Source: a virus
Taxonomy: Duplodnaviria > Caudoviricetes
DNA: 64,000 nucleotides
Strand: one strand, 5' to 3'
IMG/VR virus record: IMGVR_UViG_2883713342_000004
Coordinates: 1,929 to 65,928 of that record
In this document: piece after piece, positions 1,351 to 64,000 of the stretch
Layout: every line of letters begins with the position of its first letter
Position numbering within the stretch: the first letter of the stretch is position 1
The notes under the pieces: generated by a model
The model's database searches: none
What the model saw: the letters and a program-made list of their open reading frames with translations, nothing else
Told to the model about the DNA's origin: nothing
Translations under genes and position numbers: made by a program

Positions 1351-2052
1351 TTATTTCTCGTTACTACATAATCGATCAATTTCATTCAGCAACGCTATTA
1401 CATCAGATCGCGCATGGGCAAAAAAATCAGCATTGGCTTCAGAATTATCATGAATTTTAGGGACCAACGCGAGAGCATGATCGTTATAGCCCGAATGCGT
1501 GGGTCCACCGATAGCAATTGCTTCAAATGGAACATCTATTTCACCAAAATAGCTTCCGCCAATATCCCCAACTCGTACTGGGCCAAAGGCAGAAAAGGTG
1601 CTATAACAACCAGAACTTCTTCCTTCTGTCGAACGCAAAACTCTTTCTCTAATTGCCTCGACATTGATATTTTGTTGTTGATTGTTTGAATAGCCTTGCT
1701 CAACTAAATGTTTCGCTTCACTCGGCCTAGTGGATAAGGATGATACTTGAAAGCGAATTCCGCCTTCTATTTCCGCTATTCCACCTAAAATGTGCAACAG
1801 AATATCAAGCATCTGCTCACGGGGTAGCGCGAACCACTCACCCTGCATTCTTTGTGCTTGTTTTTCTAACAGTTTATGAAACTCTCGTTCGAAATCTTCA
1901 GGATACTGACAGGTAAAAGCTGATAGCAAATCCAGTTTTGAGCCATTTCCAGTCTGCAGTTGACGTAAACGATCATGGGGGTTGGTGGTGGTATAACCCA
2001 CCTTAAATAGATGTTGCCCCATTTCCTCAATAATATAGATCCAACCACCCAT
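1351..2052 (-). CDS. GIY-YIG/T5orf172-family nuclease domain protein with an Ead/Ea22-like C-terminal motif
   Basis: WIYII...FKVGYT...RLRQLQTGN...GEWF; C-terminus ANADFFAHARSDVIALLNEIDRL; AAGGAG RBS. Confidence 0.75.
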   Translation of the reverse strand: MGGWIYIIEEMGQHLFKVGYTTTNPHDRLRQLQTGNGSKLDLLSAFTCQYPEDFEREFHKLLEKQAQRMQGEWFALPREQMLDILLHILGGIAEIEGGIRFQVSSLSTRPSEAKHLVEQGYSNNQQQNINVEAIRERVLRSTEGRSSGCYSTFSAFGPVRVGDIGGSYFGEIDVPFEAIAIGGPTHSGYNDHALALVPKIHDNSEANADFFAHARSDVIALLNEIDRLCSNEK

Positions 2053-2079: not shown

Positions 2080-2142
2080 CCGAATGCCAGTGTCACGGGC
2101 GGCATGGTTCTCGCCGTCCTGTGAACACAGTTGTTACGTTTC
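2080..2142 (-). other. attC-like integron recombination site (R' degenerate)
   Basis: Minus strand ACGTAAC overlapping the stop codon, then GTGTTCAC...GGACGGC-loop-GCCGCC...GTGACAC with extrahelical bases; the expected GTT reads ATT. Confidence 0.6.
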
Positions 2143-2856
2143 CGACAGCTCAGAAACCACTCCTTGATCAGAAACGATTAAAATTCTTTGAAAATCATGC
2201 TTTTCTTGTATGTTCTTTATAGCCATAGAATAGGTTCCGCTATCCGCAAGCCAGTAATCATTATACAGCGCTAACCATTTTGGCCCCGAATGTGGAATGT
2301 TTTTGCATTTTAAAACTTTATCATGAATTCGATCTGCTAAGATTGCGACTGCGTTGCTGAGAATGTGGGCTTGAGAATTGTCATTTACGATCGCGCCAAC
2401 AATCTTTTTATTTGAATGGCGCCTTTTTGGAATAAAGATAATCTTAATTTTATGACCCAATACACTTGTAGTTTGACTGCTACCTTCTTTTATTGGTTTT
2501 GCGAGTACTGATTCAACTAGTTTGAAGAGTTCTTTTTTGTATTTTCGAGCATTATTGACAGGTAAATGCAAAACCAGGAGTATATCAATATCCTGGGGCA
2601 CTTTATTTTTAAGCTTTGAATCAAGTTCATTGCATAAGTTCACTCCGAATGTATCCTGAGTATTCCTGTTTTGCATTTCACCGTCCTCACCAAACACTAC
2701 AGGTGACAACCTTGTGATTTCTACAGCAACTTTTTCACCGTTTATTGTCAAATAGATATCTGGTGGGTCTTCACCTTCCTGATATGTAACACCTTCTTTG
2801 CCAAGAAATTTTACCAACGATTCACTAACGAATATTTCATCTGGTTTAAGCGCCAT
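2134..2856 (-). CDS. Hypothetical PD-(D/E)xK nuclease-like protein in a gene cassette
   Basis: 240 aa AT-rich ORF with EDPPDIYL...VAVEITRL; flanked by the perfect inverted pair GTTACGTTTC (2133-2142) / GAAACGTAAC (2874-2883). Confidence 0.65.
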   Translation of the reverse strand: MALKPDEIFVSESLVKFLGKEGVTYQEGEDPPDIYLTINGEKVAVEITRLSPVVFGEDGEMQNRNTQDTFGVNLCNELDSKLKNKVPQDIDILLVLHLPVNNARKYKKELFKLVESVLAKPIKEGSSQTTSVLGHKIKIIFIPKRRHSNKKIVGAIVNDNSQAHILSNAVAILADRIHDKVLKCKNIPHSGPKWLALYNDYWLADSGTYSMAIKNIQEKHDFQRILIVSDQGVVSELSET

Positions 2857-3228: not shown

Positions 3229-3987
3229 TCAAAAATTAGAAACTAACAGTTCCCTGCCATTGGTTTGCTTTCCCTTAGAAACCGTATATTTCAAATCAAC
3301 CGACCTAATTCCAAACCCGCTGAACACGTCCCGAATTTCCGGATGATCATTGATGCTCAAGATGAACTGGCTCTTAATCCCGGCCAGAACGTCCGCCATC
3401 TGCTGATAGTCGGACAACTCAAGATTGTGCTCGTAAAACGGCGCCTTGTAGTAAGGCGGATCGCAATAAAACAGCGTCCCCGGCTTGTCGTACCGCCGGA
3501 TAAAATCCTCCCAGGGCAGATGCTCTATCGTTACTCCTACCAGCCGTAAATGGACCGCAGATAGCTCCTCCTCCATGCGCAAAAGGTTGATGCGCGGTGC
3601 ATGCATGGGAGCCGTGCCATAGACCCGGCCTTTGACCCTCCCGCCGAAACAAAGCCGCTGCAGGTAATAATAGCGGGCCGCCCGCTGGATGTCGGTCAAA
3701 CCGCCGGCAGCCTGCTGGCGCTTCCAATCCTCGAACCATTCCCGCGACGAAAGCAACCATTTAAACTGCCTTAAAAACTCCTCCAAGTGGTTCTGCAGCA
3801 CCCGGTAAAAAGCCACCAGGTCGCTGTCCAGATCATTGATCACCTCATATTTCGATTCCGGCTTTTTAAAAAACACCCAGGCCGCGCCGGCAAATACCTC
3901 GCAGTAGGCTTTATGCTCGGGCATCATATCGATAATTGTTTTCGCCAGTTTCGATTTCCCGCCAATGTACGCTAATGGGCTGTTCAC
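3229..3987 (-). CDS. D12-class N6-adenine DNA methyltransferase (Dam-like)
   Basis: YIGGKSKLA, EVFAGA, INDLD and YCDPPY motifs; likely GTG start at 3987 behind AAGGAGG. Confidence 0.93.
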   Translation of the reverse strand: MNSPLAYIGGKSKLAKTIIDMMPEHKAYCEVFAGAAWVFFKKPESKYEVINDLDSDLVAFYRVLQNHLEEFLRQFKWLLSSREWFEDWKRQQAAGGLTDIQRAARYYYLQRLCFGGRVKGRVYGTAPMHAPRINLLRMEEELSAVHLRLVGVTIEHLPWEDFIRRYDKPGTLFYCDPPYYKAPFYEHNLELSDYQQMADVLAGIKSQFILSINDHPEIRDVFSGFGIRSVDLKYTVSKGKQTNGRELLVSNF

Positions 3988-4028
3988 GGCCGCCTCCTTG
4001 TGCATTCGAATCGACGTGTGATATTAAA

Positions 4029-12898: not shown

Positions 12899-14776
12899 CT
12901 ACGAACTGGTGTACTCGGCTTCTATGCGATAGTTCAGGCCGTAAACGAGCAGCGGGCCGGAGGCCATGATCAATCGTTCCCGCACCGGCCACAGCTCTCC
13001 CACGTTCTCCACGATTCTGCCGATCAGCCGGTCCCGCACGGCCTCGATGATCAGGTGGCACGCCTCGGCGCCGTCCGCCCGGCTGCGGTGATTCTTGGCG
13101 ATGAGCACAACCGTGAAGTTCATGGTGTGCTCGGCCAGGATTTCTTCCATCTTTCGGTCTTCGAAACTGGCCCCATCGTAAAGCACCCACAATGCCGGCA
13201 ACCGCTTGGGATTGGTTTTCAATTCGTCGATATCCCCGGCGAACTGATCGACACCGCCGGCGGCTTCAGAAATGTCACCCAGGGCCGTGATGATATCGTC
13301 GATGCTTTCCTGGATCAGGGCGGTCAACTCCATTGGATCGACGCCTTTTCCCCTGCCCGGTTCAAACAGATCGATGGGCGCCCAGCCTTTCAGGTATTTG
13401 CTGCGCTCCTGGGGCCGGCGGGCATATTCGTCCATCCAGTTGGCCACCATGCAATGGGCCATTTCCATTGTCAGGCACTTGCCACCCACCACTTTTTCGT
13501 AAACCTTGCGGTGGAGTTTTTCGCCGCGCATCAATCGCGGCGGCTTGTTGGCGATAGAGGTGCCGGTGTAGGTGGGCGCGTCGCGCTCCATTTCTGCCAT
13601 AACGCCGAAAAAACGCTCCACGGTTTTGGATTGGCCGTGATACGCCCATGCAAATATGGTCTGGATGCCCAAATTGCTGTAGATGCCGGAAAGACCGGCC
13701 TGTTCGAGATCGGTATCGAGGCCGGTGCCCTGGAAGTACTTGGATTTAAAGGCTTTGCCATTATCCAGATAGACCACGCGCGGGATCTTGCCCAGCATGA
13801 GGATCGCCCGGCGCAGCGCGACCGAAATGGCGACGGTGTTTTCCGTGGGGGCGATCTCCCAGCCGCAGGGCATGTTGGACCGCATGTCAAAAAACGTGAT
13901 CAACTGCATCCGCTCGATCTTGCCGGTCCACGGATTCAGGATCTGGAAGTTGAGTTTATGGCCGTCGGCCACCAGGATGTCGCCCACGTTGATCAGTTCC
14001 GGATTGCGCTCGATGGAGTAGCAACAATTGTCGTTCCAGTATTTCTTGCCATGGCGCTGAAAACACCAGATGTCATAATTGTGGGCCTTGAAATCCATCA
14101 GCCAGCGCCGGTAGGTGTCCGGGCTGTGACCGTTGTCGATTCCCAGTTCGGCCATGCGATTCTTGGCTTTGCGGATGATTTCGGAAATCAAACGCTTGTT
14201 GGGATGCAGGGCGATCTGGAGGATGACGGTGGCCTGCTGGGCGGTGACGATGGATTTGCCGCGCCGCCACCGGCCCCGGCGGTCGGAAAGATCGCCGCCG
14301 GCCCGAATGGTGCGCTTCCAGCCCTCGATGGTTTTCCAGGAGACCGGTCCGACGATGGCGTGGATCTCCTCGAAGATCAGTCCGGAATTGTATGCCAGGA
14401 TAAAATTGTCACGGGCCACGGCCTTGTTGCCATGACCGGCGGCGGCCAGGGTGCGGGTGTATTGCAAAAGCAGGTCGGTCTTGGCACTGAATACGGCTTT
14501 TTGCTTCTCGGTCATCGCCGGTACCGGCGTTTTCTCCGGTGCGGCCATCGGAAGGCGGTTCGTGGATGCCGCCGGCAGGTTGCAAACCAGTTCCCTATTA
14601 TAAAGGAGGCGGATGTCCTCGGGCAGGCTGTCGACGGGGTAATGCTTGATCTTGCCACCACGGCCGGTTGATAAGTTAAATTTCCAGCCCTCCTTAAGCG
14701 CCCGTTTTCTGGCCGCCCTGACGGTCACGCCAAGCAAGTTTGATATTTCTTTTGCCGTGAGTGCCTGCATGATCAA
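12899..14776 (-). pseudogene. In-frame fusion of C-terminally truncated MuA-like transposase with a Mu gp37-like tail terminator
   Basis: Colinear with the 712 aa transposase (VADGH, YLDNGK, KTVERFF) up to GVDPMELTAL, then unrelated sequence with LPALWVLYDG...IIEAVRDRLIG; junction at 13313/13314. Confidence 0.85.
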
Positions 14777-16548: not shown

Positions 16549-17142
16549 ATGACAGTTCCTACTTCGAAAACCGGTTCCCACTTTAGTTCCGACTTTCATA
16601 AAGAAAGTGGGAACCCAGATTTCGGAAAAAGACTGACCTCAAAAAGAAAGCTTATAGGGTTGAGTCAGGATGCATTAGCCCTAAAAATAGGAACAAGTAA
16701 AAGCACTGTACAAAGGTATGAAAAAGGAGAGCTTCCAAAAGGCGACAAGCTTTTAGCATTATCTTTTACCCTTGATTGCTCATTAGATTGGCTACTTAAA
16801 GGCGAGGGAGGCCCAAGCGAGCCATTTATTGATGATGAAAAGGCACCTACCAACAACATCCACGACTCGCAAAATTTTCACATTATTCAGGAATTCGAAG
16901 ATCAAGAATTCGCGCTGGAGATCAACCAGGCCCTCATGGTCATGGAAAAAACCTCCTTAAAGGAGTTTTACAAGCTGGGAGGGTATATCAAGGCCCTGTC
17001 GGGAAGCGGGATCGAGATACGTACTGATTATAGCGGTTCCCAGAATAAGCAATATGATTCCGATGTCTGGGATGGCACCGAACGCAGATCGGGGAAAGAT
17101 CGTCGCAAAACAGTAGGTAAAACTGACGTCAACCCGGAATAA
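16549..17142 (+). CDS. XRE-family prophage repressor
   Basis: LSQDALALKIGTSKSTVQRYEKG...SLDWLLKG; divergent from the early operon; no S24 peptidase domain; C-terminal ERRSGKDRR. Confidence 0.85.
   Translation: MTVPTSKTGSHFSSDFHKESGNPDFGKRLTSKRKLIGLSQDALALKIGTSKSTVQRYEKGELPKGDKLLALSFTLDCSLDWLLKGEGGPSEPFIDDEKAPTNNIHDSQNFHIIQEFEDQEFALEINQALMVMEKTSLKEFYKLGGYIKALSGSGIEIRTDYSGSQNKQYDSDVWDGTERRSGKDRRKTVGKTDVNPE
16555..16614. promoter_or_regulatory. GTTCCNRCTT site array (three direct, one inverted)
   Basis: Sites at 16555, 16574, 16586 and inverted at 16605; identical 19/12/19 spacing at 61602-61661. Confidence 0.55.
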
Positions 17143-17434: not shown

Positions 17435-17630
17435 CGAGCACAGATGGAAATGCCTGGAACCGGCGCGAAATCAATAAAAGGTTTTCTGAAGCGATCTATC
17501 ACTTTTGGCATAGGATAGTTACAATTGGGAAGGCTGTTTTTCGATATTTGTGTTGTTACCGAACTCAATTGGTAAAAATCATGATCTTATGAGTGAATTC
17601 CAGCAAAACTATAGAGGGAAGGCCTTCAAT

Positions 17631-18653
17631 ATGAAAATCACACATATTTTCAGTTTTCTTGTCCGCCCGGAAAAAGGTCAGGAAGTGCAATCTGAAGTTG
17701 GAGGGACATCAATACCGCTCGAGGGCAATCTGTATTATATGCTATTGACTATATTTGAACGAGCAACTGAGGATTGTAAAATAGATATAACTTTTTTGCC
17801 AAGTGGGGATGGAATTCAATTCAACCAGCGTAGGTCCGAAATACTTGATGTAATCAAACATCGAGACATTAAGCATGCACAGCTCCTTGCAAAACACCTT
17901 CAGTCAGTAACGACAAAAAGATCAAAATTAGGATTGTTTTTTATCGTTCTTGGAAGAGATGGGGGGACAGAACGAATTTACTTGTCAAGGTTCCCTGCAG
18001 ATTTTGGTATCGTTGCTGAAGAAACGCAGAACGAGTTACATGTCGAGTTGATTGAGCAAGTTTTTATGAAAAGCGAAAAAAGCTATAAAGCCGTTGTTTT
18101 TGACGGCACAAATGCAGACTCTGATTTTTGGATAGGGAAAGCGATCGACAAACAAGTCAACGACAATTCTGTTTCTATCTCAGGGTATTGGATAAAGGAA
18201 TTCCTGAAAGCTGATTTTCGCACCACTTCAGCTGCAGGGACTCGCAGGTTAGCAAAAGCAATTATGGAAACCATCAATCAGACGAACGATCTTGAAATTA
18301 AAGAAGAACTCACATCCGCGGCAAGACTTTCAAGATCATTGGCTAATAAGATAATCAGCATGGATAACTTTGCTGATAAATTTGGACTTTCCGAAAAAAC
18401 TAAGAATGCGCTAATATCAACACTTCGAAACAGGAATCTTCGTTTTGATCAATTTAAGTTTTCTACCAGTGAATTTAGGAAACATGTCAGATTCCGATCT
18501 CTTCAAATCAGCAACGGTGCGATTTTAACCGCTCCATTAAACAGTTTCGATCAATGCTTTACAAAGCAATGTATTGCTGATGATAGCGACGAATATTTAT
18601 TTAGCACGCAAGGTACCATTGTCGATGATCGCTTAAGAGCTAAAAAATCATGA
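17631..18653 (+). CDS. NdpA/YejK (nucleoid-associated)-like protein
   Basis: LAKHL...GLFFIV...KAVVF...ISGYWIKEFL...TRRL pattern resembles the NA37 family; start MKITH behind GAGGGAAGG; family call by eye. Confidence 0.55.
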   Translation: MKITHIFSFLVRPEKGQEVQSEVGGTSIPLEGNLYYMLLTIFERATEDCKIDITFLPSGDGIQFNQRRSEILDVIKHRDIKHAQLLAKHLQSVTTKRSKLGLFFIVLGRDGGTERIYLSRFPADFGIVAEETQNELHVELIEQVFMKSEKSYKAVVFDGTNADSDFWIGKAIDKQVNDNSVSISGYWIKEFLKADFRTTSAAGTRRLAKAIMETINQTNDLEIKEELTSAARLSRSLANKIISMDNFADKFGLSEKTKNALISTLRNRNLRFDQFKFSTSEFRKHVRFRSLQISNGAILTAPLNSFDQCFTKQCIADDSDEYLFSTQGTIVDDRLRAKKS

Positions 18654-19258
18654 AGAGCTTACTGGAGTTATATACAAATCGATATAATAATATATTAGTC
18701 CCCGCCGCCAAAGGTATAAAAGGACTTCTAATTGATTATTTTGAGGACTTTGAAAGAATTGACCGAATTTCAGCTAGAGCAAAATCTATAGATAGGTTTA
18801 TGCAAAAAGCTCAAAATGAAATTAACGGGAAACCGAAATACTCAGATCCATTGAATCAAATTCAAGATCAAATTGGTGCACGCATTGTTACATTCTATAA
18901 AAAGGATGTTGATCGTGTAAGCGAAGTAGTACTTAAATATTTCAGACATATAGAACTAACCTCAATTGTGCCTGATTCTGATGCCGAATTTGGATATTTC
19001 GGCAAACACTTTATTTTGATAATTCCTCCAGATGTGTCTGAAGCGGAAGTTTCCGGTTGCCCAAAATTCTTTGAATTACAGGTAAAGACTCTATTTCAAC
19101 ACTCTTGGAGCGAAGCGAATCACGACCTCGGTTACAAACCGAATTCAGATTTATCTTCGGAGATCAAAAGGAAGATCGCATTTACATCAGCTCAAGCATG
19201 GGGCGCAGACGAAATTTTCAACGATCTTTTTTTAAGAATGAACCATATAGAGAGCTGA
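18650..19258 (+). CDS. RelA/SpoT-domain small alarmone synthetase
   Basis: RAKS, QDQIGARIV, YFGKH, ELQVKTLFQHSWSEANHDLGYK; ATGA-coupled to the upstream gene. Confidence 0.9.
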   Translation: MKSLLELYTNRYNNILVPAAKGIKGLLIDYFEDFERIDRISARAKSIDRFMQKAQNEINGKPKYSDPLNQIQDQIGARIVTFYKKDVDRVSEVVLKYFRHIELTSIVPDSDAEFGYFGKHFILIIPPDVSEAEVSGCPKFFELQVKTLFQHSWSEANHDLGYKPNSDLSSEIKRKIAFTSAQAWGADEIFNDLFLRMNHIES

Positions 19259-19493: not shown

Positions 19494-19763
19494 ATGGGAA
19501 ATTTAACAGTAGGTGAATTAAAAAAGAGACTCTCAGTTTACAAAGATTCTGCCAAGATATCGTTTGCCGGAGGATTGACTTTCTATCAATTGAAGACTTG
19601 GTCAGACAACGAACTCTTTGTTGAATTCAACGAACCAGAAGGTTATCTTTCAGACGAGTTTAGAAAGCGAAATCCTGGCGTCAAGGTTGTATTTATTGAT
19701 CCCACCGGGGCAAACTGTAGCGCGTCTGGAATTATAGGTGATGTAGACGTTAGTGTAAGGTAA
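19494..19763 (+). CDS. Hypothetical protein
   Basis: 89 aa with strong GGAGGTG RBS. Confidence 0.65.
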   Translation: MGNLTVGELKKRLSVYKDSAKISFAGGLTFYQLKTWSDNELFVEFNEPEGYLSDEFRKRNPGVKVVFIDPTGANCSASGIIGDVDVSVR

Positions 19764-19898: not shown

Positions 19899-20444
19899 AT
19901 GGAAGAAGAAATGTACCCTGGCTTCGAATTACACTTTGAAATGACAATGAGATCATTCCTGGGAAATAAGGCGGATCATATTGCCGGTCAGGCGTATAGT
20001 CCTCAGGTTCGAAAAAAGTGGTATCGAAAAGCACTCCTAAAAGCCCAGAAGCAGATAATGTCTATTGATACATCCACATCCCATCGGGAGCAACTTAATA
20101 CATGGTGTGAAGCGGCTTTAAAGGTCTTAGGAGAACGTAAATTAGATGAATATAAACTACTAATTTATTTGTTTCGTCTAATAAGTGCACTATTGGGATT
20201 TCGTGGTTTGAAAGGGGTAACTCTATATTCAGCATTTTTTTGGCAAAACAAAGGACAGTATTATACTGAGCAGCTTAATTCCGTTGCTGACCCAATGATT
20301 GATTATTATGATATTGAAAATTCCGTTTCTATAAGAAAAGAGCTCGTTAAAGAGCTAAAAGAGCGAGGCTTATCGGATTTTAAAATCGCACAAGTGTTGA
20401 ACACAACGGAGTATCAAGTAAAAAAAATGAAAAATAATCTCTAA
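19899..20444 (+). CDS. Hypothetical protein with C-terminal HTH, cassette-like
   Basis: GLSDFKIAQVLNTTEYQVKK; stop codon lies within TCTAAC, followed by an attC-like sequence. Confidence 0.65.
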   Translation: MEEEMYPGFELHFEMTMRSFLGNKADHIAGQAYSPQVRKKWYRKALLKAQKQIMSIDTSTSHREQLNTWCEAALKVLGERKLDEYKLLIYLFRLISALLGFRGLKGVTLYSAFFWQNKGQYYTEQLNSVADPMIDYYDIENSVSIRKELVKELKERGLSDFKIAQVLNTTEYQVKKMKNNL

Positions 20445-20553: not shown

Positions 20554-20841
20554 GTCCAAATTTCTGAGATAGTGTGCAAATATCGCAAAATATTTTGCGT
20601 TTTCAGGTCATTTTTCTGATTTTTAAAATTCGTCGAAAATCCGCTCCATACCCGCTTGTCAAAACATCACCACCACGCCAAAAACACCGACATTAAAGCA
20701 TATCCATCCGAACCAGAATCCCATTGAATCCCGCCAAATCCCGTCAAATCCCGCCTATTCGTTTTGCTTAGATAGTGTGCGTGCGGTAAATGGATATAAA
20801 TTTCCACGCTAAATCAGAATTATTCCCACGCTATCTCAGAA
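20553..20841. repeat. Candidate right end of prophage 2
   Basis: TG at 20553; TTCTGAGATAGTGTG at 20562, partial copy at 20770, inverted copies at 20804 and 20826; AATCCC x4 at 10-bp period from 20717. Confidence 0.6.
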
Positions 20842-20940: not shown

Positions 20941-21699
20941 CTAATAATTTGTGATCAACAGCTCCCTACCGGCGGTCTGCTTGGCCTTCGATACAGAATA
21001 TTTCAAAACCACCGGTCTGATTTCGAACCGGCTAAAAACCTTCCGAATTTCCGGATGGTCGTTGATGCTCAAAATGAATTTGCCGTCTATGGTTGCGAGA
21101 ACGTTGGCCATTTGCTTGTAGTCGCCGAGTTCCAAATTGTGCTCGTAATACGGCATTTTGTAATATGGCGGATCGCAATAAAACAGCACCTCCGGACGGT
21201 CATATTTGCCAACAAAAACGTCCCAGGTAAGGTGCTCGATGGTAACGCCGACCAGGCGAAGGTGAACAGCTGACAGTTCCTCCTCGAGGCGCAACAGGTT
21301 AATCCGAGGCGGATGCATGGGGCCGGCCCCAAACGTGCGGCCCTTAACCCGTCCTGCGAAGCAAAGACGCTGCGTGTAATAATAACGGGCGGCCCGCTGA
21401 ATGTCGGTCAGGCCGCCAGCAGCTTGCTGGCGCTTCCAGTCCCCGAACCATTCTCGAGACGATAAAATCCATTTAAACTGCTTTAAAAATTCTTCGAGAT
21501 GGTTCTGCAGCACCCGATAAAAAACGACCAAATCACTATCAAGATCATTGATCACTTCGTATTTCGAAAAAGGCTTTTTGAAAAACACCCAGGCCGCTCC
21601 CGCAAAGACCTCACAATAGGATTTGTGATCGGGCATCATGTCGATAATGGTTTGAGCCAATTTCGACTTACCACCAATATACGCTAATGGGCTGTTCAC
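20941..21699 (-). CDS. D12-class N6-adenine DNA methyltransferase (Dam-like)
   Basis: Close paralog of 3229-3987 with DPPY; GTG start behind AAGGAG. Confidence 0.93.
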   Translation of the reverse strand: MNSPLAYIGGKSKLAQTIIDMMPDHKSYCEVFAGAAWVFFKKPFSKYEVINDLDSDLVVFYRVLQNHLEEFLKQFKWILSSREWFGDWKRQQAAGGLTDIQRAARYYYTQRLCFAGRVKGRTFGAGPMHPPRINLLRLEEELSAVHLRLVGVTIEHLTWDVFVGKYDRPEVLFYCDPPYYKMPYYEHNLELGDYKQMANVLATIDGKFILSINDHPEIRKVFSRFEIRPVVLKYSVSKAKQTAGRELLITNY

Positions 21700-21737
21700 G
21701 GCCGTCTCCTTGTGTATTTGAATCAACGTGTGATATA

Positions 21738-21843
21738 GCCCTGATGCTTCACCCAAAGCATTGGGCCGTCTGATTTCAGATGTCTGGTTGAACCAAGGCA
21801 GCCATTCGCCCTGGGGATGTTAGCGCATCCACCAGGGCGGCCC
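21738..21843 (+). ncRNA. Putative structured antisense RNA in the methylase leader (copy 2)
   Basis: Same stems as 4029-4137 with different loops. Confidence 0.55.
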
Positions 21844-56597: not shown

Positions 56598-57362
56598 TTA
56601 TTTCTTGGCCCAATGGATGGCCGACTTGATGGCGGCGCCGGCGATCTCCGGCGTGATGACATCGCTGTTTTTCGCGTTGGCGTACTGGATCGCGTACTGC
56701 ACAGCCCGTTTGACCAAACGGAAGTTGCCGTCGGACGTATTCTTGGTGCCGGTTTTGTGCAGAATGGCGGCCACGTCCGCATTGATCTTGACTCCGGCGG
56801 CCTCCTTGGCGAAGATGATCACGTCGCTGTGTTTCATGGGGGAAAACATCACCGGATCGAATGTCAACGTCCATCCGCGTTCATTGGGCTGCATGAAAGG
56901 GATAAGCTTGCGCTCGCCAATCAGAATGAACGGACAAAGGCTCGCTTTCGTAAAATCGCGCATCAATTCGAGATGCCCGTTTTTAAGCCGGTCCACCTCG
57001 TCGATGAAAATTACCGCGTCCCGATTTTCAAAAAGGTAGTCCATGATATCGCGGTAACATCGCCCTTTTCGGTTCCCGACATTCTCGATACCAAGCTCCC
57101 GACACAGGTCCCGCAGGAATTCGAGTTCGCTGGAACGCCATATCCACGTGGAAGGAAGGTAAACCGTGTTGGGGTGATTGGCGTAATACCATTTAGCCGC
57201 CTCGCTCTTCCCTAGTCCGGCCCCACCGCAGATCATCCCGAAACAACCTTCACCGGTATCCATCTGGATATCTTCCATCATCATTAGAACGTTCCGGACA
57301 TTCTGGGTTTGGATAAAAACCGAGTTGGACATCTTTAATCCTGACATTGGGACTCCTTTCAT
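56598..57362 (-). CDS. MuB-like AAA+ transposition ATPase
   Basis: Walker A GGAGLGKS, Walker B IFIDEVD, ILIGE; follows the transposase. Confidence 0.9.
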   Translation of the reverse strand: MKGVPMSGLKMSNSVFIQTQNVRNVLMMMEDIQMDTGEGCFGMICGGAGLGKSEAAKWYYANHPNTVYLPSTWIWRSSELEFLRDLCRELGIENVGNRKGRCYRDIMDYLFENRDAVIFIDEVDRLKNGHLELMRDFTKASLCPFILIGERKLIPFMQPNERGWTLTFDPVMFSPMKHSDVIIFAKEAAGVKINADVAAILHKTGTKNTSDGNFRLVKRAVQYAIQYANAKNSDVITPEIAGAAIKSAIHWAKK

Positions 57363-57386: not shown

Positions 57387-59525
57387 TCACATCGCATCCG
57401 CGATAACCGCTTCTTTCTTGCGAACCTCTTCCCAATAATCGTTCTTCTCAAGGCTGCGATACGCCGGTGTCTGCTCGAAATACCGCATAAACGCCATCCA
57501 CTGCTTCGGGATCATCACCCCCCGGGCGTCAAGGCGCACCAGCTGCTCGTACCGGTCCGGTTCGTCCATTCGATCCAGGTCGGCGAAAACGTTCACCGGC
57601 TCTTTTTCCTGGGATTCGAAATACTCGGCCGCTTCCTGCTCGATGCGTTTCTCTTCTGCGGCGGTGAGCTGTTTGGGCGCGGTTTCCCGGTCGATCTTCA
57701 GGGGGCCGGTGGGCGTCACGCCTTCGCGCAGCAGCTGCTGACGGTGGGCCGGCAGCACCTCTTTCTCCAGCAGCATCTTCGATAGTCCGCTGGCCAGCTT
57801 GTACTGGTGATTCTTGATAGCGATCTGCTGCTCAAGCTGGGCCACATCCTCGGCGGTGCCCAATTGCTTGGCCGCCGGGTGGGTTTTCTCCTGTTCGTAG
57901 GCGATACAGATAAATTCTCCGTCTTCGTATACGGCGATATAGCTCGGGTCCTGGAGATCGTAGCGGATCTCCACCTTGTGGTGGCGTCCGTACAGATCGT
58001 TGTGGTAGTAAAAGCGGCCCATATGGGAGATGCGGCTGGCCCGGATTAGGGCGTCTTTCCGGGCCCACATCAGGGCGGTCAACGCCATCGGGTCGACGCC
58101 TTCACCGCGACCGGGCTCGAACAGGTCAACGGGTGCCCATCCCTTCAGGTATTTGCTGCGTTCCTGCGGCCGCCGGGCGTATTCGTCCATCCAGTTCGCC
58201 ACCATGCAATGGGCCATTTCAATGGTCATGCATTTGCCATCCATGATTTTTTCGTAAACCTTGCGATGGAGTTTTTCTCCGCGCATCATTCGCGGCGGCT
58301 TGGTGGCAATGGAGGTCCCGCTATAGGTGTCCGAGTGCCGCTCCATCTCGGCCATCGTGCCGAAAAAGCGCTCGACCGTTTTAGACTGCCCGTGGTAGGC
58401 CCAGGCGAAAATGGTCTGGATTCCAAGATCGCTGTAAATACCGGACAACCCGGCCTGTTCGAGGTCGGTCTCCAGGGCAGTCCCTTTGAAATATTTGGCC
58501 TTGAATGCCTTTCCGTTGTCCAGGTAGACCACGCGCGGGATCTTGCCCAGCATCAGGATCGCCCGGCGCAGGGCCGTGGAGATGGCTGCGGTGTTTTCGG
58601 AAGGGGCGATCTCCCATCCACAGGGCATATTCGAACGCATGTCGAAAAACGTGATCAGCTGCATCCGGGTCGGCTTGCCGGTCCACGGATTGAGAATTTC
58701 GAAATTCAGCTTGTGCCCGTCTGCAACCAGGACATCGCCCACGTTAATCAGTTCCGGGTTGCGCTCGATGGAATAGCAGCAGTTGTCGTTCCAGTATTTT
58801 TTACCGTGCCGCTGGAAGCACCAGATGTCGTAATTGTGGGTCCTGAATTTCTCGATCCATCGCCGGTAGGTATTCGGGCTGTGCCCGTTGTCGATCCCCA
58901 GGCCGGCCATGCGCTTCTTGGCCTCCCGGATCACCTCGGCGATGAGGAGTTTATTGGGATGCAGCGCCACCTGGAGGATGATCGTGGCCTGCTGCGCGGT
59001 GATGAGGGTCTTTCCTTTATGGGCCTTGCCACGCTTATCCGCCAGGTTCCCGCCGGATCGCACGGCCCGTTTCCATCCTTCTATGGTTTTCCAGGATACC
59101 GGCCCGACGATCTCGTAAATTTGCTGAAAGATGAGACCGCCGTTGTACGCCAGCATGAAGTTTTCACGGGCCGTGGCCTTGTTGCCGTGTCCGGCGGCGG
59201 CCAGGGTGCGGTTGTACTGCAGCAGCAGGTCGGTCTTTGCGCTGAAGATTTCCTTTTGCTTCTCGGTCATGGCCGGCACCGGTGTTTTCTCCGGCGCAAC
59301 GGCGGGAAGGCGGCTGCCGGATGTCTCCGGCAGGTTGCAGACGCGCTCCTTATTATATAAGAGGCGGATATCCTCTGGGAGATTGTCTACCCGGTAATGT
59401 TTTGCCGGTCCACCTCGCCCCGAAACGAGATCATATCGCCACTTCTCGTTCTGAGCCCGTTTATTGACAGCCCTGACGGTGACGCAAAGCAATCCGGATA
59501 TCTCTTTTGCCGTGATCGCCTGCAT
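57387..59525 (-). CDS. MuA-like DDE transposase (full length)
   Basis: N-terminal HTH, VADGH / YLDNGK / KTVERFF triad, C-terminal IRYDLQD domain. Confidence 0.95.
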   Translation of the reverse strand: MQAITAKEISGLLCVTVRAVNKRAQNEKWRYDLVSGRGGPAKHYRVDNLPEDIRLLYNKERVCNLPETSGSRLPAVAPEKTPVPAMTEKQKEIFSAKTDLLLQYNRTLAAAGHGNKATARENFMLAYNGGLIFQQIYEIVGPVSWKTIEGWKRAVRSGGNLADKRGKAHKGKTLITAQQATIILQVALHPNKLLIAEVIREAKKRMAGLGIDNGHSPNTYRRWIEKFRTHNYDIWCFQRHGKKYWNDNCCYSIERNPELINVGDVLVADGHKLNFEILNPWTGKPTRMQLITFFDMRSNMPCGWEIAPSENTAAISTALRRAILMLGKIPRVVYLDNGKAFKAKYFKGTALETDLEQAGLSGIYSDLGIQTIFAWAYHGQSKTVERFFGTMAEMERHSDTYSGTSIATKPPRMMRGEKLHRKVYEKIMDGKCMTIEMAHCMVANWMDEYARRPQERSKYLKGWAPVDLFEPGRGEGVDPMALTALMWARKDALIRASRISHMGRFYYHNDLYGRHHKVEIRYDLQDPSYIAVYEDGEFICIAYEQEKTHPAAKQLGTAEDVAQLEQQIAIKNHQYKLASGLSKMLLEKEVLPAHRQQLLREGVTPTGPLKIDRETAPKQLTAAEEKRIEQEAAEYFESQEKEPVNVFADLDRMDEPDRYEQLVRLDARGVMIPKQWMAFMRYFEQTPAYRSLEKNDYWEEVRKKEAVIADAM

Positions 59526-61595: not shown

Positions 61596-62060
61596 ATGTC
61601 TGTTCCCACTTCGAAAAACGGTTCCAGCTTAAGTTCCAGCTTTCAAAATGAAAGTGGGAACCGAGAATCGTTTCATTTTAGACTTAAAAGAAAGCGAAAA
61701 GAGTTAGATATTAGCCAGCAAAAATTGGCTGATATGATAGGTGTTACTAAAAATACAATTCAAAGTTGGGAAAGATCTACATTTCCAAAAGGCGACCACT
61801 TAATTACGCTTTCGACAATATTTTCTTGTTCTACGGATTGGCTGCTTAAAGGTGAGAATGATACCAATGGAAGCCAAGTGGCATATATAGACTATGCCAC
61901 GCAGCTTGTGTATGAAGTAGAAAAGGAGGTGAAAACTAAATTGAACGACAGCCAGCGCAAGGCGGTGGTTGAAATTTTGCGCAAAGAGATCGACAGGCGC
62001 AACCAGGAATCCAAGGATCAGATCGCCAAGCTATTAACATCGTTCATAGTTCGTGACTGA
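61596..62060 (+). CDS. XRE-family prophage repressor
   Basis: ISQQKLADMIGVTKNTIQSWE...STDWLLKG; no peptidase domain. Confidence 0.85.
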   Translation: MSVPTSKNGSSLSSSFQNESGNRESFHFRLKRKRKELDISQQKLADMIGVTKNTIQSWERSTFPKGDHLITLSTIFSCSTDWLLKGENDTNGSQVAYIDYATQLVYEVEKEVKTKLNDSQRKAVVEILRKEIDRRNQESKDQIAKLLTSFIVRD

Positions 62061-62068
62061 AAAGGAGA

Positions 62069-62701
62069 GTGGTGATGGAAGATCTCAGGGGCAAGCTAAG
62101 AGAGGCAATTGTCAGGAACGCGGATAAAGCGGAACCAACTATTGAAAAGGGTCATGTTGCCGTCGGCAATGGTAATATTCAGGCTGGTGGAGATGTTAAT
62201 ATTTCCAATAATGAACGAAAAGTAGAACGGGTTAACCGCCTTCCGGAATGTGATGACATCGATGCCCGGCAAAAGAAATTTATACAGGACAAAATCTATC
62301 AGCTGGCCGACCGCGATGTTAAAAAGGGCGCGGATACAGGTAAGGCCCGGTCTTCCTGGTGGTCACGTCTTAGAAACAAATTCTATGTAAATTCATACAC
62401 CTGCCTGAAACAATCCCAGTTCGACGACGTAATGAAATGGCTCGACCAGCAGGTTGGAATGACCAGGTCGAAGCTTCGCAGAACCGACAAATCCACCTGG
62501 CGCAAGGAACTTTATACGGCCCTTAATGCAAAAAAAAGCCAGCTTAAAAAAACAAAAGAATGGCTTTACGATCAGGCCTATGAAATCACCGGAAAACGTG
62601 TTACATCCCTTAAAGACTTGAACGATACCAACCTCAAAAAACTGCATCAAATTCTTTTCAGCCGTTACAAAGGTGTGGGCTCACGCAAAAAAATCCGCTA
62701 A
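62069..62701 (+). CDS. Putative DNA-binding protein with ORF6C-like segment
   Basis: WSRLRNKFYVNSYTCLKQSQFDDVMKWL; AAGGAG RBS; directly downstream of the repressor. Confidence 0.6.
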   Translation: MVMEDLRGKLREAIVRNADKAEPTIEKGHVAVGNGNIQAGGDVNISNNERKVERVNRLPECDDIDARQKKFIQDKIYQLADRDVKKGADTGKARSSWWSRLRNKFYVNSYTCLKQSQFDDVMKWLDQQVGMTRSKLRRTDKSTWRKELYTALNAKKSQLKKTKEWLYDQAYEITGKRVTSLKDLNDTNLKKLHQILFSRYKGVGSRKKIR

Positions 62702-62703
62702 TA

Positions 62704-63417
62704 TTGTTGATTTTAAAGGAGGCCCATTTTATGCAATTTTATTCAATAGAAAATAAAAACGATATTGGTATATCAATTAAAACAATTTCAATCGTCTCAG
62801 TGTTTATTTTATTATTTTTAGGGTGTGAAACTATCGTCGAAACAGAGGTTAGCCTGCAAGATCTTTTAAATTCAAAAACAAAAATAATCAGTGGAGACCT
62901 TTATGTTGAAGTGGCTGCTTGCGCCAGCCACGAAGATTCTCGCAAACCTTCTAATGCTGCTGTTCAGGCCCAACAAACAATTCCGATAATTTTCGAAGGT
63001 GCTGAATATATAGAATGTTTTTCAAAAAGTTTTGATTCTTTCGCGCATTTTAAAATTCCTATAGTTATCGACAAAGATATTGATGGAAAATTTGCATCCA
63101 ATAAAAACGTAAATATCATTTCTAATAAAAATAACTTATTATGGATTGGGATACCACCAGGAATTAAGAAAAAGATGGAGAATTTCAAAGAAGAAAGTTT
63201 TGGCGCGACTTCATTCGATCTCAAAGTTAACGTTATGATAAATAATGATACGGGAAAAGATCATCCTTTTAAAGTGGTATCCGCCTATATAGATGGTCAT
63301 CCATACGTTTATGGTGATTTGACGTCGCACAAAAACAGTAAATTTCTTGTTACATTATCCGACGTATCGGTAGACCAAGCTTTGAAAGATGGAAGGGCTT
63401 TAGTTTTGTTGCATTGA
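62704..63417 (+). CDS. Putative lipoprotein (lysogenic cargo)
   Basis: Lipobox LFLGC; AT-rich; exact start uncertain. Confidence 0.6.
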   Translation: MLILKEAHFMQFYSIENKNDIGISIKTISIVSVFILLFLGCETIVETEVSLQDLLNSKTKIISGDLYVEVAACASHEDSRKPSNAAVQAQQTIPIIFEGAEYIECFSKSFDSFAHFKIPIVIDKDIDGKFASNKNVNIISNKNNLLWIGIPPGIKKKMENFKEESFGATSFDLKVNVMINNDTGKDHPFKVVSAYIDGHPYVYGDLTSHKNSKFLVTLSDVSVDQALKDGRALVLLH

Positions 63418-63457
63418 TAGATAATGGCAATTTTTCTGTTATCAACGGAGGCTGAAA

Positions 63458-64000
63458 ATGGCGAACTGCCAGTCCTGCAACTCCGAAATATCCCCCGGGA
63501 GCCGCTGGTGCTCCATCTGCCACACCAACCTTAAAGATCCTTTAATCGGCCGACTCGCTTCCCCAGGAAGACGCCTTGGCGCCTATTTTTTAGATGTGAT
63601 AATATTTGGGTGTTTAATTGGGTTTTCGATAGTACCGGTCGCCGGAATAATTGCCCATGAAGAATTATCCGACAACCAGGTCATTGCTGTGCTTATCTGT
63701 GGAATGTTGTTTTTTGCTGCGGTTCTTTGGACACTCATATTGTTTAGAAACGGGCTGACCCCTGGTAAGAAATTCCTTGGCATTAAGGTTATCAAAGAGG
63801 ATTGCGGCCGCGCTGGCTTTATTACCATGCTGATACGGGAGGTGATCGGTAAATCAATATCGAGCCTAATTTTTTCTTTGGGATTTTTATGGATACTTTT
63901 TGACCGTGATAATCAAGGCTGGCACGACAAATTAATGAACACCTATGTAATACAACCGGACAATCAAAAACAGCTCGTCAAAGCTCAAGATAGTATTTAA
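63458..64000 (+). CDS. RDD-family membrane protein with N-terminal Zn ribbon
   Basis: RRLGAYFLD...TPGKKFLGIKV...RE...QGWHDKL; CxxC x2. Confidence 0.88.
   Translation: MANCQSCNSEISPGSRWCSICHTNLKDPLIGRLASPGRRLGAYFLDVIIFGCLIGFSIVPVAGIIAHEELSDNQVIAVLICGMLFFAAVLWTLILFRNGLTPGKKFLGIKVIKEDCGRAGFITMLIREVIGKSISSLIFSLGFLWILFDRDNQGWHDKLMNTYVIQPDNQKQLVKAQDSI

Follow-up and report, generated by a model that had tools for sequence, protein, structure and literature searches.

Organization of the locus

The DNA analyzed here, referred to as the window, is a stretch of 64,000 nucleotides covering positions 1,929 to 65,928 of the IMG/VR virus record IMGVR_UViG_2883713342_000004, and it occupies positions 1890263-1954262 within a single-contig genome of 7.3 Mb. 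The subject of the analysis is a two-gene module of 1.6 kb (Table 1), in which gene 1 encodes a protein of 340 residues whose model has the fold of the nucleoid-associated protein YejK (Pfam family NA37, PF04245), and gene 2 encodes a small alarmone synthetase (SAS) of 202 residues. Gene 1 starts with an ATG codon that has a GAGGGAAGG-type ribosome-binding site upstream, and a longer frame of the same gene, opening with GTG, begins at 17550. The fraction of guanine plus cytosine (GC) was 0.36-0.41 over 17-21 kb of the window, compared with 0.54-0.62 in the phage DNA at 10-16 kb. A first-pass annotation, made by a model from the letters alone, had described an AT-rich two-gene unit with an ATGA overlap, in which the second gene was a stand-alone RelA/SpoT synthetase lacking a hydrolase; the coordinates, the composition and the domain content given below all confirmed this description.

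The module proved to be real and widespread, and none of the models tried from Pfam, NCBIfam and PADLOC annotates it. With PADLOC v2 no described system was matched: gene 1 gave no match, and gene 2 gave a weak partial match to PDC-S33 (E 1e-5), which was not taken as membership. A search of Rfam over 16.3-21 kb of the window returned no matches, and the promoter and terminator scans around the pair were uninformative.

Gene 2 encodes a single-domain alarmone synthetase

Gene 2 matched the Pfam family RelA_SpoT (PF04607) above the cut-off, with an E value of 2.8e-11, and the Pfam scan showed a single domain with no hydrolase (HD) domain. Its best sequence match in the PDB was RelQ/YjbM of B. 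subtilis (E 3e-10, residues 20-192), followed by other RelQ and RelP proteins, and none of the PDB sequence matches at E≤1 was a toxic small alarmone synthetase (toxSAS). The AlphaFold2 model, built on an alignment of 37 sequences, had a mean predicted local distance difference test score (pLDDT) of 90.1 and consisted of one SYNTH domain that aligned end to end with RelQ. In the Foldseek search with this model, RelQ and RelP were the nearest structures with template-modelling (TM) scores of 0.70-0.76, the entries 2be3 and 5dec standing first at 0.76, while CapRel stood at rank 39 with a TM score of 0.55 and was still significant (E 3.3e-7).

All motifs of the SYNTH domain were present in gene 2, namely RxKxxxSxxxK, DxxGxR, the G-loop GYxxxH, ExQxxT and HxxxYK. 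The positions R43, K45, K53, D73, G76, R78, Y116, G118, H120, E142, Q144, T147, H158, D159, Y162 and K163 were invariant or nearly so in 37 family members, which suggests an active enzyme maintained by purifying selection. The same 37 sequences carried ELQ(I/V)KT, with a nearly invariant lysine, at the site of the ExQxRT motif. The isoelectric point (pI) of the protein was 6.0 and the median of its family 5.6. In 78 complete pairs from other genomes the synthetases were 183-226 residues long, so none of them has an extra domain. The genome that holds the window contained one other match to a RelA/SpoT domain, in an open frame of 729 residues that we take to be the long RelA/SpoT homolog (Rel).

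The subfamily of gene 2 was assigned by means of the datasets of Jimmy et al. 2020 (PMC7229694). The pair is present in Rhizobium sp. Kim5 and in Ochrobactrum grignonense OgA9a, two genomes for which the table of that study (supplement file 1) gives PsRel as the sole SAS. Moreover, the motifs of the window protein recur in the psRel rows of its alignment (file 4) and are not shared by the gRel rows. Judged by these comparisons, gene 2 belongs to the uncharacterised PsRel subfamily and not to GRel. PsRel is found only in the datasets of that paper, is absent from its main text and was not studied there, and a literature search for PsRel as a whole word found it in 2 papers only, both on unrelated subjects.

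Gene 1 is predicted to have the YejK fold

No usable match to gene 1 came from NCBIfam, PADLOC or PHROGs, nor from Pfam, which was also searched at E≤10 and with the longer frame that opens with GTG. The family of gene 1 comprised 279 proteins at E≤1e-3, and the profile of this family had 0 matches among the PDB sequences at E≤10. Structural comparison was carried out with an AlphaFold2 model from an alignment of 37 sequences (pLDDT 82.6, predicted TM score 0.62). The sole significant PDB match in Foldseek was E. coli YejK (9be2), with an E value of 2.4e-7 and a probability of 1.0, and the remaining entries had E>0.09. Alignment with VIA-align gave a Z score of 12.4 for YejK, with 289 of the 340 residues aligned across 1-340, and a Z score of 5.4 for the next entry. 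The root-mean-square deviation of the superposition was large (15 Å) because the orientation of the domains differs. In a language-model look-up in the ESM Atlas, NA37 was the annotation of 27 of the 30 clusters nearest to gene 1, with a top score of 0.98. KwaB of the Kiwa system was also tried as a candidate fold and was rejected, its Z score being only 3.9-4.2 versus 12.4 for YejK.

The likeness of gene 1 to NA37 proteins, as proposed in the first-pass annotation, thus held for the fold, which covers the whole chain, and failed for membership by hidden Markov model (HMM), since gene 1 fell short of the PF04245 gathering score and had no Pfam match even at the relaxed threshold. The gene 1 protein had a pI of 8.6 as a whole, 9.6 (basic) in its C-terminal part and 6.0 (mildly acidic) in its N-terminal part. 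A six-frame search of the same genome with PF04245 found no canonical NA37 gene.

The two genes are conserved as a pair

Gene 1 was searched in a collection holding one genome per species, which gave 106 relatives, and 80 loci were kept. A homolog of gene 2 lay directly downstream of gene 1 in all 80, and the two genes overlapped by 4 nt in 52 of the 78 complete pairs. The search in the other direction, with gene 2 against metagenomes, gave at least 382 relatives, of which the best 80 were kept; gene 1 was adjacent upstream in every one of the 62 loci with at least 1050 bp of upstream sequence and in 16 of the 18 shorter ones. Among viral contigs (IMG/VR) the pair was present in five of six loci. 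The pairing is obligate from both sides, far beyond chance. All-against-all clustering of 1048 flank open reading frames (ORFs) showed that only gene 1 and gene 2 were common to 81 loci; no third conserved gene was present in these loci, and the largest other cluster covered 3 of them. The two small ORFs that follow the pair in the window, of 89 and 181 residues, were both missing from the conserved neighbours. The pairwise identities of gene 1 and gene 2 were correlated (Pearson 0.70), and 0 of 999 permutations gave a value as high; 76 pairs entered this comparison after 3 with doubtful gene models had been left out.

The hosts of the pair were Desulfobacterota, Alpha-, Beta- and Gammaproteobacteria, Planctomycetota, Acidobacteriota, Ignavibacteria, Bacteroidota, Gemmatimonadota, Myxococcota and Eremiobacterota/Vulcanimicrobiota, and six conjugative plasmids of Rhizobium and Agrobacterium also carried it. 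No relative of gene 1 was found in 50,697 GenBank phage records. The sixth viral locus (L092:990-6382) represents a decaying copy: gene 1 is missing, and the synthetase, located between the genes for the large terminase and the portal protein, is without the conserved C-terminal part. A phage-type locus with the module between large terminase and portal genes was observed at L036:4514-8884.

A search for longer proteins gave four matches, P0241, P0242, P0243 and P0244. P0242 (547 residues, from a metagenome) is a clean fusion of gene 1 and gene 2, in which the replaced part is confined to a few residues at the end of gene 1. P0241 (510 residues, likewise from a metagenome) has about 60 out-of-frame residues between its two parts and is probably an error, a frameshift artefact or a pseudogene. 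The clusters of P0242 and P0241 have one or two member sequences, so the fusions are weak evidence. P0243 (376 residues) and P0244 (399 residues) are distant RelA/SpoT synthetases with 20-27% identity to gene 2 and C-terminal extensions of about 150 residues, and they may be of the type with a SYNTH domain plus an extra domain, like Pag1B described below.

The genes around the pair were surveyed with Pfam on the two nearest ORFs of each side at 38 loci, taken from the first 150 of 212 proteins after 6 near-duplicate loci had been dropped. By manual reading of the Pfam names, domains of restriction, defence or toxin-antitoxin (TA) type lay within two genes of the pair in 16 of the 38 loci, a count that is descriptive since there was no matched control. 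Phage or recombinase genes were present in 7 of the 38 loci, two of which (L039 and L047) are also among the 16, and in one of the seven the pair was situated between terminase and portal genes.

The left end of a Mu-like prophage contains the pair

Annotation with PHROG and Pfam revealed two tandem Mu-like transposable prophages, both running right to left and called A and B here. Their assignment was based on inverted terminal repeats, on modules for tail and head, and on a MuA-type transposase accompanied by a repressor and by early genes of the Ner type. The repressor of prophage A is directly upstream of the pair on the same strand. The 15-base motif TTCTGAKWTAGYGWG occurred in about 88 kb at four predicted prophage ends only, in plus orientation at left ends and in minus orientation at right ends; besides the sites in Table 1 it was located at the window-equivalent positions 64031 and about -3.5 kb. 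Since the motif was derived from these end sites themselves, what carries information is that the rest of the sequence lacks it. The positions of the end repeats thus place the pair inside prophage A, between its repressor and its left end at about 20.6 kb, and the earlier placement of the pair between two prophages was corrected accordingly. A scan for the exact termini of the prophages, by TG...CA with a 5-bp duplication, gave ambiguous candidates only.

In prophage A, a single ORF of 625 residues joins a MuA-like transposase to a tail terminator, a fusion that points to an internal deletion and to a defective prophage. Genes for early functions, lysis and the head seem to have been lost with the deleted segment. 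Prophage B is complete, and its left end has the same layout as that of prophage A, with a repressor, low-GC cargo and an end repeat. The genes that prophage B holds in this slot are different ones, and the position is therefore variable in its cargo, which suggests that the slot from the repressor to the left end is a variable cargo slot in this group of Mu-like phages. If the cargo is of defence type, it would be a further example of transposable phages carrying such genes.

Comparison with known proteins and systems

E. coli YejK/NdpA (PF04245, 9be2) shares with gene 1 the fold over the whole length and a size of about 335-340 residues, but identity in the structural alignment was 8-11%, with no signal by HMM or by profile-profile comparison, and YejK is a stand-alone housekeeping gene whereas gene 1 always travels with a synthetase. 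RelQ and RelP (SAS1 and SAS2; 5dec, 5ded, 6ewz, 2be3) were the best matches of gene 2 in both sequence and fold, with all SYNTH motifs and about 200 residues. However, they have ExQxRT where the gene 2 family has ELQ(I/V)KT, and they are chromosomal housekeeping enzymes of Bacillota without an obligate partner gene, whereas gene 2 is mobile and dependent on its partner.

The toxSAS TA systems (FaRel, FaRel2, PhRel, PhRel2 and CapRel; PMC7229694) likewise combine a small RelA/SpoT synthetase with a conserved, overlapping two-gene layout and occurrence on mobile elements. The pair differs from them in that PsRel is outside the validated toxic subfamilies and in that the partner is a protein of 340 residues with the fold of a nucleoid protein. 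In addition, CapRel SJ46 (343 residues, chain 7ztb_B) has a fused C-terminal antitoxin domain and gene 2 does not.

A system made of a YejK-like protein and a synthetase, PANGU type I, was reported in a preprint of 6 April 2026 (bioRxiv 10.64898/2026.04.06.716658), which describes it as follows. Pag1A is a YejK-like nucleoid-associated protein (NAP) and Pag1B is a toxSAS of the GRel subfamily. Neither is toxic alone, and Pag1B exists as an inactive tetramer. Experiments showed that Pag1A activates Pag1B to make pppGpp after phage-induced degradation of host DNA; in this activation the Pag1A dimer binds Pag1B, at nanomolar strength, through an acidic DNA-mimic (DMK) domain at the C terminus of the synthetase, a domain that the authors call a conserved architectural principle. 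The protection against phage is abortive, and Pag1B gave no labelling of tRNA. The survey of PANGU systems used an HMM based on IPR007358, with E<1e-10 and at least 300 residues. The only literature found to contain toxSAS and GRel together was this preprint. Independently, a defence system with a YejK domain was validated in the DefensePredictor study (PMC13092281).

The pair resembles PANGU type I in its bicistronic operon, its YejK-fold partner of about 340 residues, its effector of the RelA/SpoT synthetase type, its spread across phyla and its link to defence islands, and the two systems are likely to share the logic by which a sensor of the nucleoid-protein type gates an alarmone synthetase that aborts infection. 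Three defining features set them apart. Pag1B (37.5 kDa) has the DMK domain, which the synthetases of the pair lack at 202 residues (183-226 among relatives); the effector is GRel in one and PsRel in the other; and gene 1 is far below the HMM threshold of the survey, as judged with Pfam NA37 as a proxy for the HMM of the authors. The pair therefore matches no described system, a statement that relies on the published descriptions of Pag1A and Pag1B, as PsRel operons might figure in the supplementary tables of the PANGU work. The pair looks like a divergent, undescribed relative of the PANGU systems that differs precisely in the coupling device. The remark in the first-pass annotation that the pairing was not recognised as a named system consequently needs division: the concept has already been named, as PANGU type I, and this particular pair corresponds to none of the described systems.

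Proposed mechanism

Our preferred interpretation, which we hold with slightly more confidence than doubt, is that the pair is a PANGU-like abortive-infection module, self-contained and horizontally mobile, which in the window travels as cargo of a defective Mu-like prophage. According to this interpretation, the YejK-fold protein of gene 1 probably sits on the chromosomal DNA, and in the uninfected cell the synthetase would be held inactive. When a phage degrades or remodels the host DNA, the YejK-fold protein would change its state and switch the synthetase on by direct protein-protein contact. The active synthetase would then use ATP and GTP to produce (pp)pGpp or a related pyrophosphorylated nucleotide, and this product would stop transcription and translation so that the infection is aborted. 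Since the synthetase has no DMK domain, the contact must be made by the SYNTH domain itself or by the long terminal helices at residues 4-30 and 170-200, which would be a coupling unlike that of PANGU type I. The analysis establishes the two folds, the catalytic motifs, the obligate pairing, the mobility of the module and its setting in prophages and defence islands; from these we infer that gene 1 binds DNA, that it activates and does not inhibit the synthetase, what the product is, and that the module acts against phage. The first-pass annotation had proposed that a DNA-binding sensor or antitoxin gates the synthetase. A gating partner fits the obligate pairing, the defence and prophage context and the PANGU precedent, whereas the antitoxin role sits poorly with the only case studied, in which the partner is an activator.

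Several observations weigh against this interpretation. Only 2 of 37 relatives of gene 1 matched Pfam NA37, the best with an E value of 0.026, and hhalign gave a probability of 1.2% for gene 1 against NA37, on an NA37 alignment that was thin (3 sequences) because the class-level genome sample yielded 2 NA37 genes in 61 genomes. The kinship of gene 1 with NA37 therefore appears to lie at the limit of detection in sequence, and common descent and DNA binding would have to be argued from the modelled fold. The gene 1 family had a median pI of just 6.8, and in the window protein the N-terminal domain is mildly acidic. On the side of gene 2, the missing DMK domain and the assignment to PsRel instead of GRel both depart from PANGU type I, and the preprint reports that the isolated SYNTH domain of Pag1B is inactive (bioRxiv 10.64898/2026.04.06.716658). 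Finally, the count of defence-type neighbours had no matched control.

A broader and more tentative claim, which we consider somewhat less probable than its opposite, is that the pair represents a second lineage of alarmone immunity gated by nucleoid proteins, invisible to sequence searches, in which a YejK-fold sensor controls a minimal PsRel directly and without a DMK domain. The idea that a nucleoid-associated protein watches over the integrity of the genome is very recent and comes from one preprint, with the DNA-mimic domain as the only coupling described. The pair keeps both players and drops the DMK domain, and both of its proteins occur in versions missed by current detection rules. 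If a second lineage exists, the partnership of NAP and synthetase either arose twice or is far older and more plastic than reported, and surveys with the NA37 HMM miss a widespread family, with relatives in at least 106 species genomes and with 382 or more matches in metagenomes. If the module defends against phage, this would show that a bare synthetase domain is open to direct gating by a nucleoid-protein fold, give the uncharacterised PsRel a function and extend this class of immunity to at least 10 phylum- or class-level groups. The module is small, and the roles of activator and antitoxin are separable by simple experiments.

Alternative explanations

The strongest competitor, though we regard it as unlikely, is a classical type II toxSAS TA system, in which the synthetase would be constitutively toxic and the YejK-fold protein would be a large antitoxin that binds and inhibits it. 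Such an antitoxin might also autoregulate the operon through DNA, and the module might stabilize the prophage or plasmid, or fire when the supply of antitoxin fails during infection. An upstream partner, a downstream enzyme and a 4-nt overlap are typical of TA operons, and the presence of the pair on conjugative plasmids and prophages together with an obligate partner is in keeping with them. The known antitoxins of toxSAS enzymes are small proteins or SAH hydrolases, and a partner of 340 residues with a full nucleoid-protein fold is unlike them. Conserved bicistronic arrangements of SAS genes were found to indicate toxicity in the study of Jimmy et al. 2020 (PMC7229694). However, gene 2 is closest in sequence and fold to RelQ and RelP, which the same study reports as non-toxic, and PsRel is outside the five subfamilies validated as toxins and missing from the main text. 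Furthermore, in the only NAP-SAS system studied so far, the nucleoid protein served as an activator, and no toxicity was seen with either gene by itself (bioRxiv 10.64898/2026.04.06.716658).

A regulatory module without a defensive role appears improbable. In this case a nucleoid-associated protein would link the state of the chromosome, for instance its supercoiling or damage to its DNA, with a stringent-type response of local extent, to the benefit of the host or the mobile element; one use might be to govern lysogeny or the induction of the prophage. Three features would suit such a module: a fold and motifs like those of RelQ, which suggest that (p)ppGpp is made in the ordinary way; the position of the pair directly after a prophage repressor on the same strand; and the presence, in the genome of the window, of just one other RelA/SpoT-domain gene and no canonical NA37. 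Its sporadic spread over many phyla with unrelated flanks, a GC content atypical for the genome and the frequency of restriction and defence genes among the neighbours all point away from it. Moreover, this slot is occupied by other cargo in prophage B, which places the pair outside the regulatory core of the phage.

Modification of tRNA by the effector, which would pyrophosphorylate the CCA end as CapRel, FaRel2 and PhRel do once the partner has released the synthetase, is very improbable. In its favour, several toxSAS subfamilies act in this way according to the PANGU preprint (bioRxiv 10.64898/2026.04.06.716658), and CapRel was a significant structural match of gene 2. Against it, RelQ and RelP fit better than CapRel, the PDB sequence search at E≤1 was devoid of toxSAS, Pag1B gave no tRNA labelling in the same preprint, and the mildly acidic character of gene 2 and its family speaks weakly against a strongly basic tRNA-binding surface.

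Other features of the window

The features of the pair and of the two prophages are collected in Table 1. The two genes for D12-class adenine methyltransferases, one near the right end of each prophage, were 77.6% identical over 842 bp, and their position is that of mom in phage Mu. Between the methylase and the right-end repeats of prophage A there was about 6.7 kb of low-GC DNA (0.34-0.52; window-equivalent -3500 to 3200), which holds a protein with a T5orf172/MUG113 domain and an ORF of 240 residues without assignment. This stretch may be a second cargo region.

Table 1. Features of the window, with positions counted from its first nucleotide
Feature	Position	Strand	Description
Gene 1	17631-18653	+	340 aa; YejK/NA37-fold protein, putative DNA-bound sensor or regulator of the synthetase
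Gene 2	18650-19258	+	202 aa; stand-alone small alarmone synthetase, PsRel subfamily, SYNTH domain only
ATGA overlap	18650-18653	+	Stop of gene 1 and start of gene 2, read in the sequence; translational coupling
Repressor, prophage A	16549-17142	+	CI/DicA-like helix-turn-helix protein; Pfam HTH_3, Phage_CI_repr; NCBIfam DicA/RstR; PHROG repressor
Transposase-tail ORF, prophage A	12899-14776	-	625 aa; MuA-like phrog_310 at residues 3-475, Phage_tail_terminator/Gp37 at residues 513-622
Small cargo ORF	19494-19763	+	89 aa; only match phrog_21180
Small cargo ORF	19899-20444	+	181 aa; weak matches only
Left-end repeat, prophage A	20562-20576	+	Predicted transposase-binding-type site; motif TTCTGAKWTAGYGWG
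Two right-end repeats, prophage B	20805-20841 (20805, 20827)	-	Motif TTCTGAKWTAGYGWG, end alignment
D12-class methyltransferase, prophage A	3229-4005	-	
T5orf172/MUG113-domain protein, prophage A	1351-2052		
ORF without assignment, prophage A	2134-2856		240 aa
D12 methylase, prophage B	20941-21756	-	
Tail genes, prophage B	22-37 kb		
Head genes, prophage B	41-48 kb		
MuB-like gene, prophage B	56598-57362		
MuA-like gene, prophage B	57387-59525		
Repressor, prophage B	61596-62060		
Cargo, prophage B	62069-64000		Includes a 210-aa protein without family
DUF7424 protein, cargo of prophage B	62704-63417		
Third ORF, cargo of prophage B	from 63458		

Neighbours of the pair in other genomes

The defence-type neighbours in the flank survey, all named from Pfam, were of several kinds. 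Mrr was found at 4 loci and Panacea at 2. Restriction-modification functions were represented by DpnII, by NaeI with Dcm, by a restriction enzyme of the PstI type and a methylase with DndB, by type I HsdM/HsdS and by HSDR_N. Other neighbours were DarT with an ADP-ribosylglycohydrolase, an LA2681-like HEPN protein, HNH_2, a D12 methylase, and a methylase with a large AAA_11/12 helicase. Plasmid pRetKim5a has the pair near a gene with an AbiJ-NTD4 domain and near an AAA family ATPase plus a UvrD-helicase domain, the latter arrangement being read as Gabija-like, and on an A. vitis plasmid the pair is near genes for TIR-domain and ImmA/IrrE proteins.

Two further observations were made at these loci. 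At two Rhizobium loci (L023:3304-5611 and L083:5306-7598) a conserved divergent unit adjoins the pair, consisting of an adenylosuccinate-synthetase-like protein of 542 residues and a DUF7002 protein, and this unit may be a separate defence candidate. Genome G004, which carries the pair at L005, also contains on the minus strand of L087:263-2475 a canonical NA37 gene (E 1.4e-61) that overlaps a downstream ORF of 405 residues by 4 nt; this ORF had just a weak match to membrane proteins of the major facilitator superfamily (MFS) type, and the layout resembles that of PANGU type II, with a NAP and a transmembrane effector.

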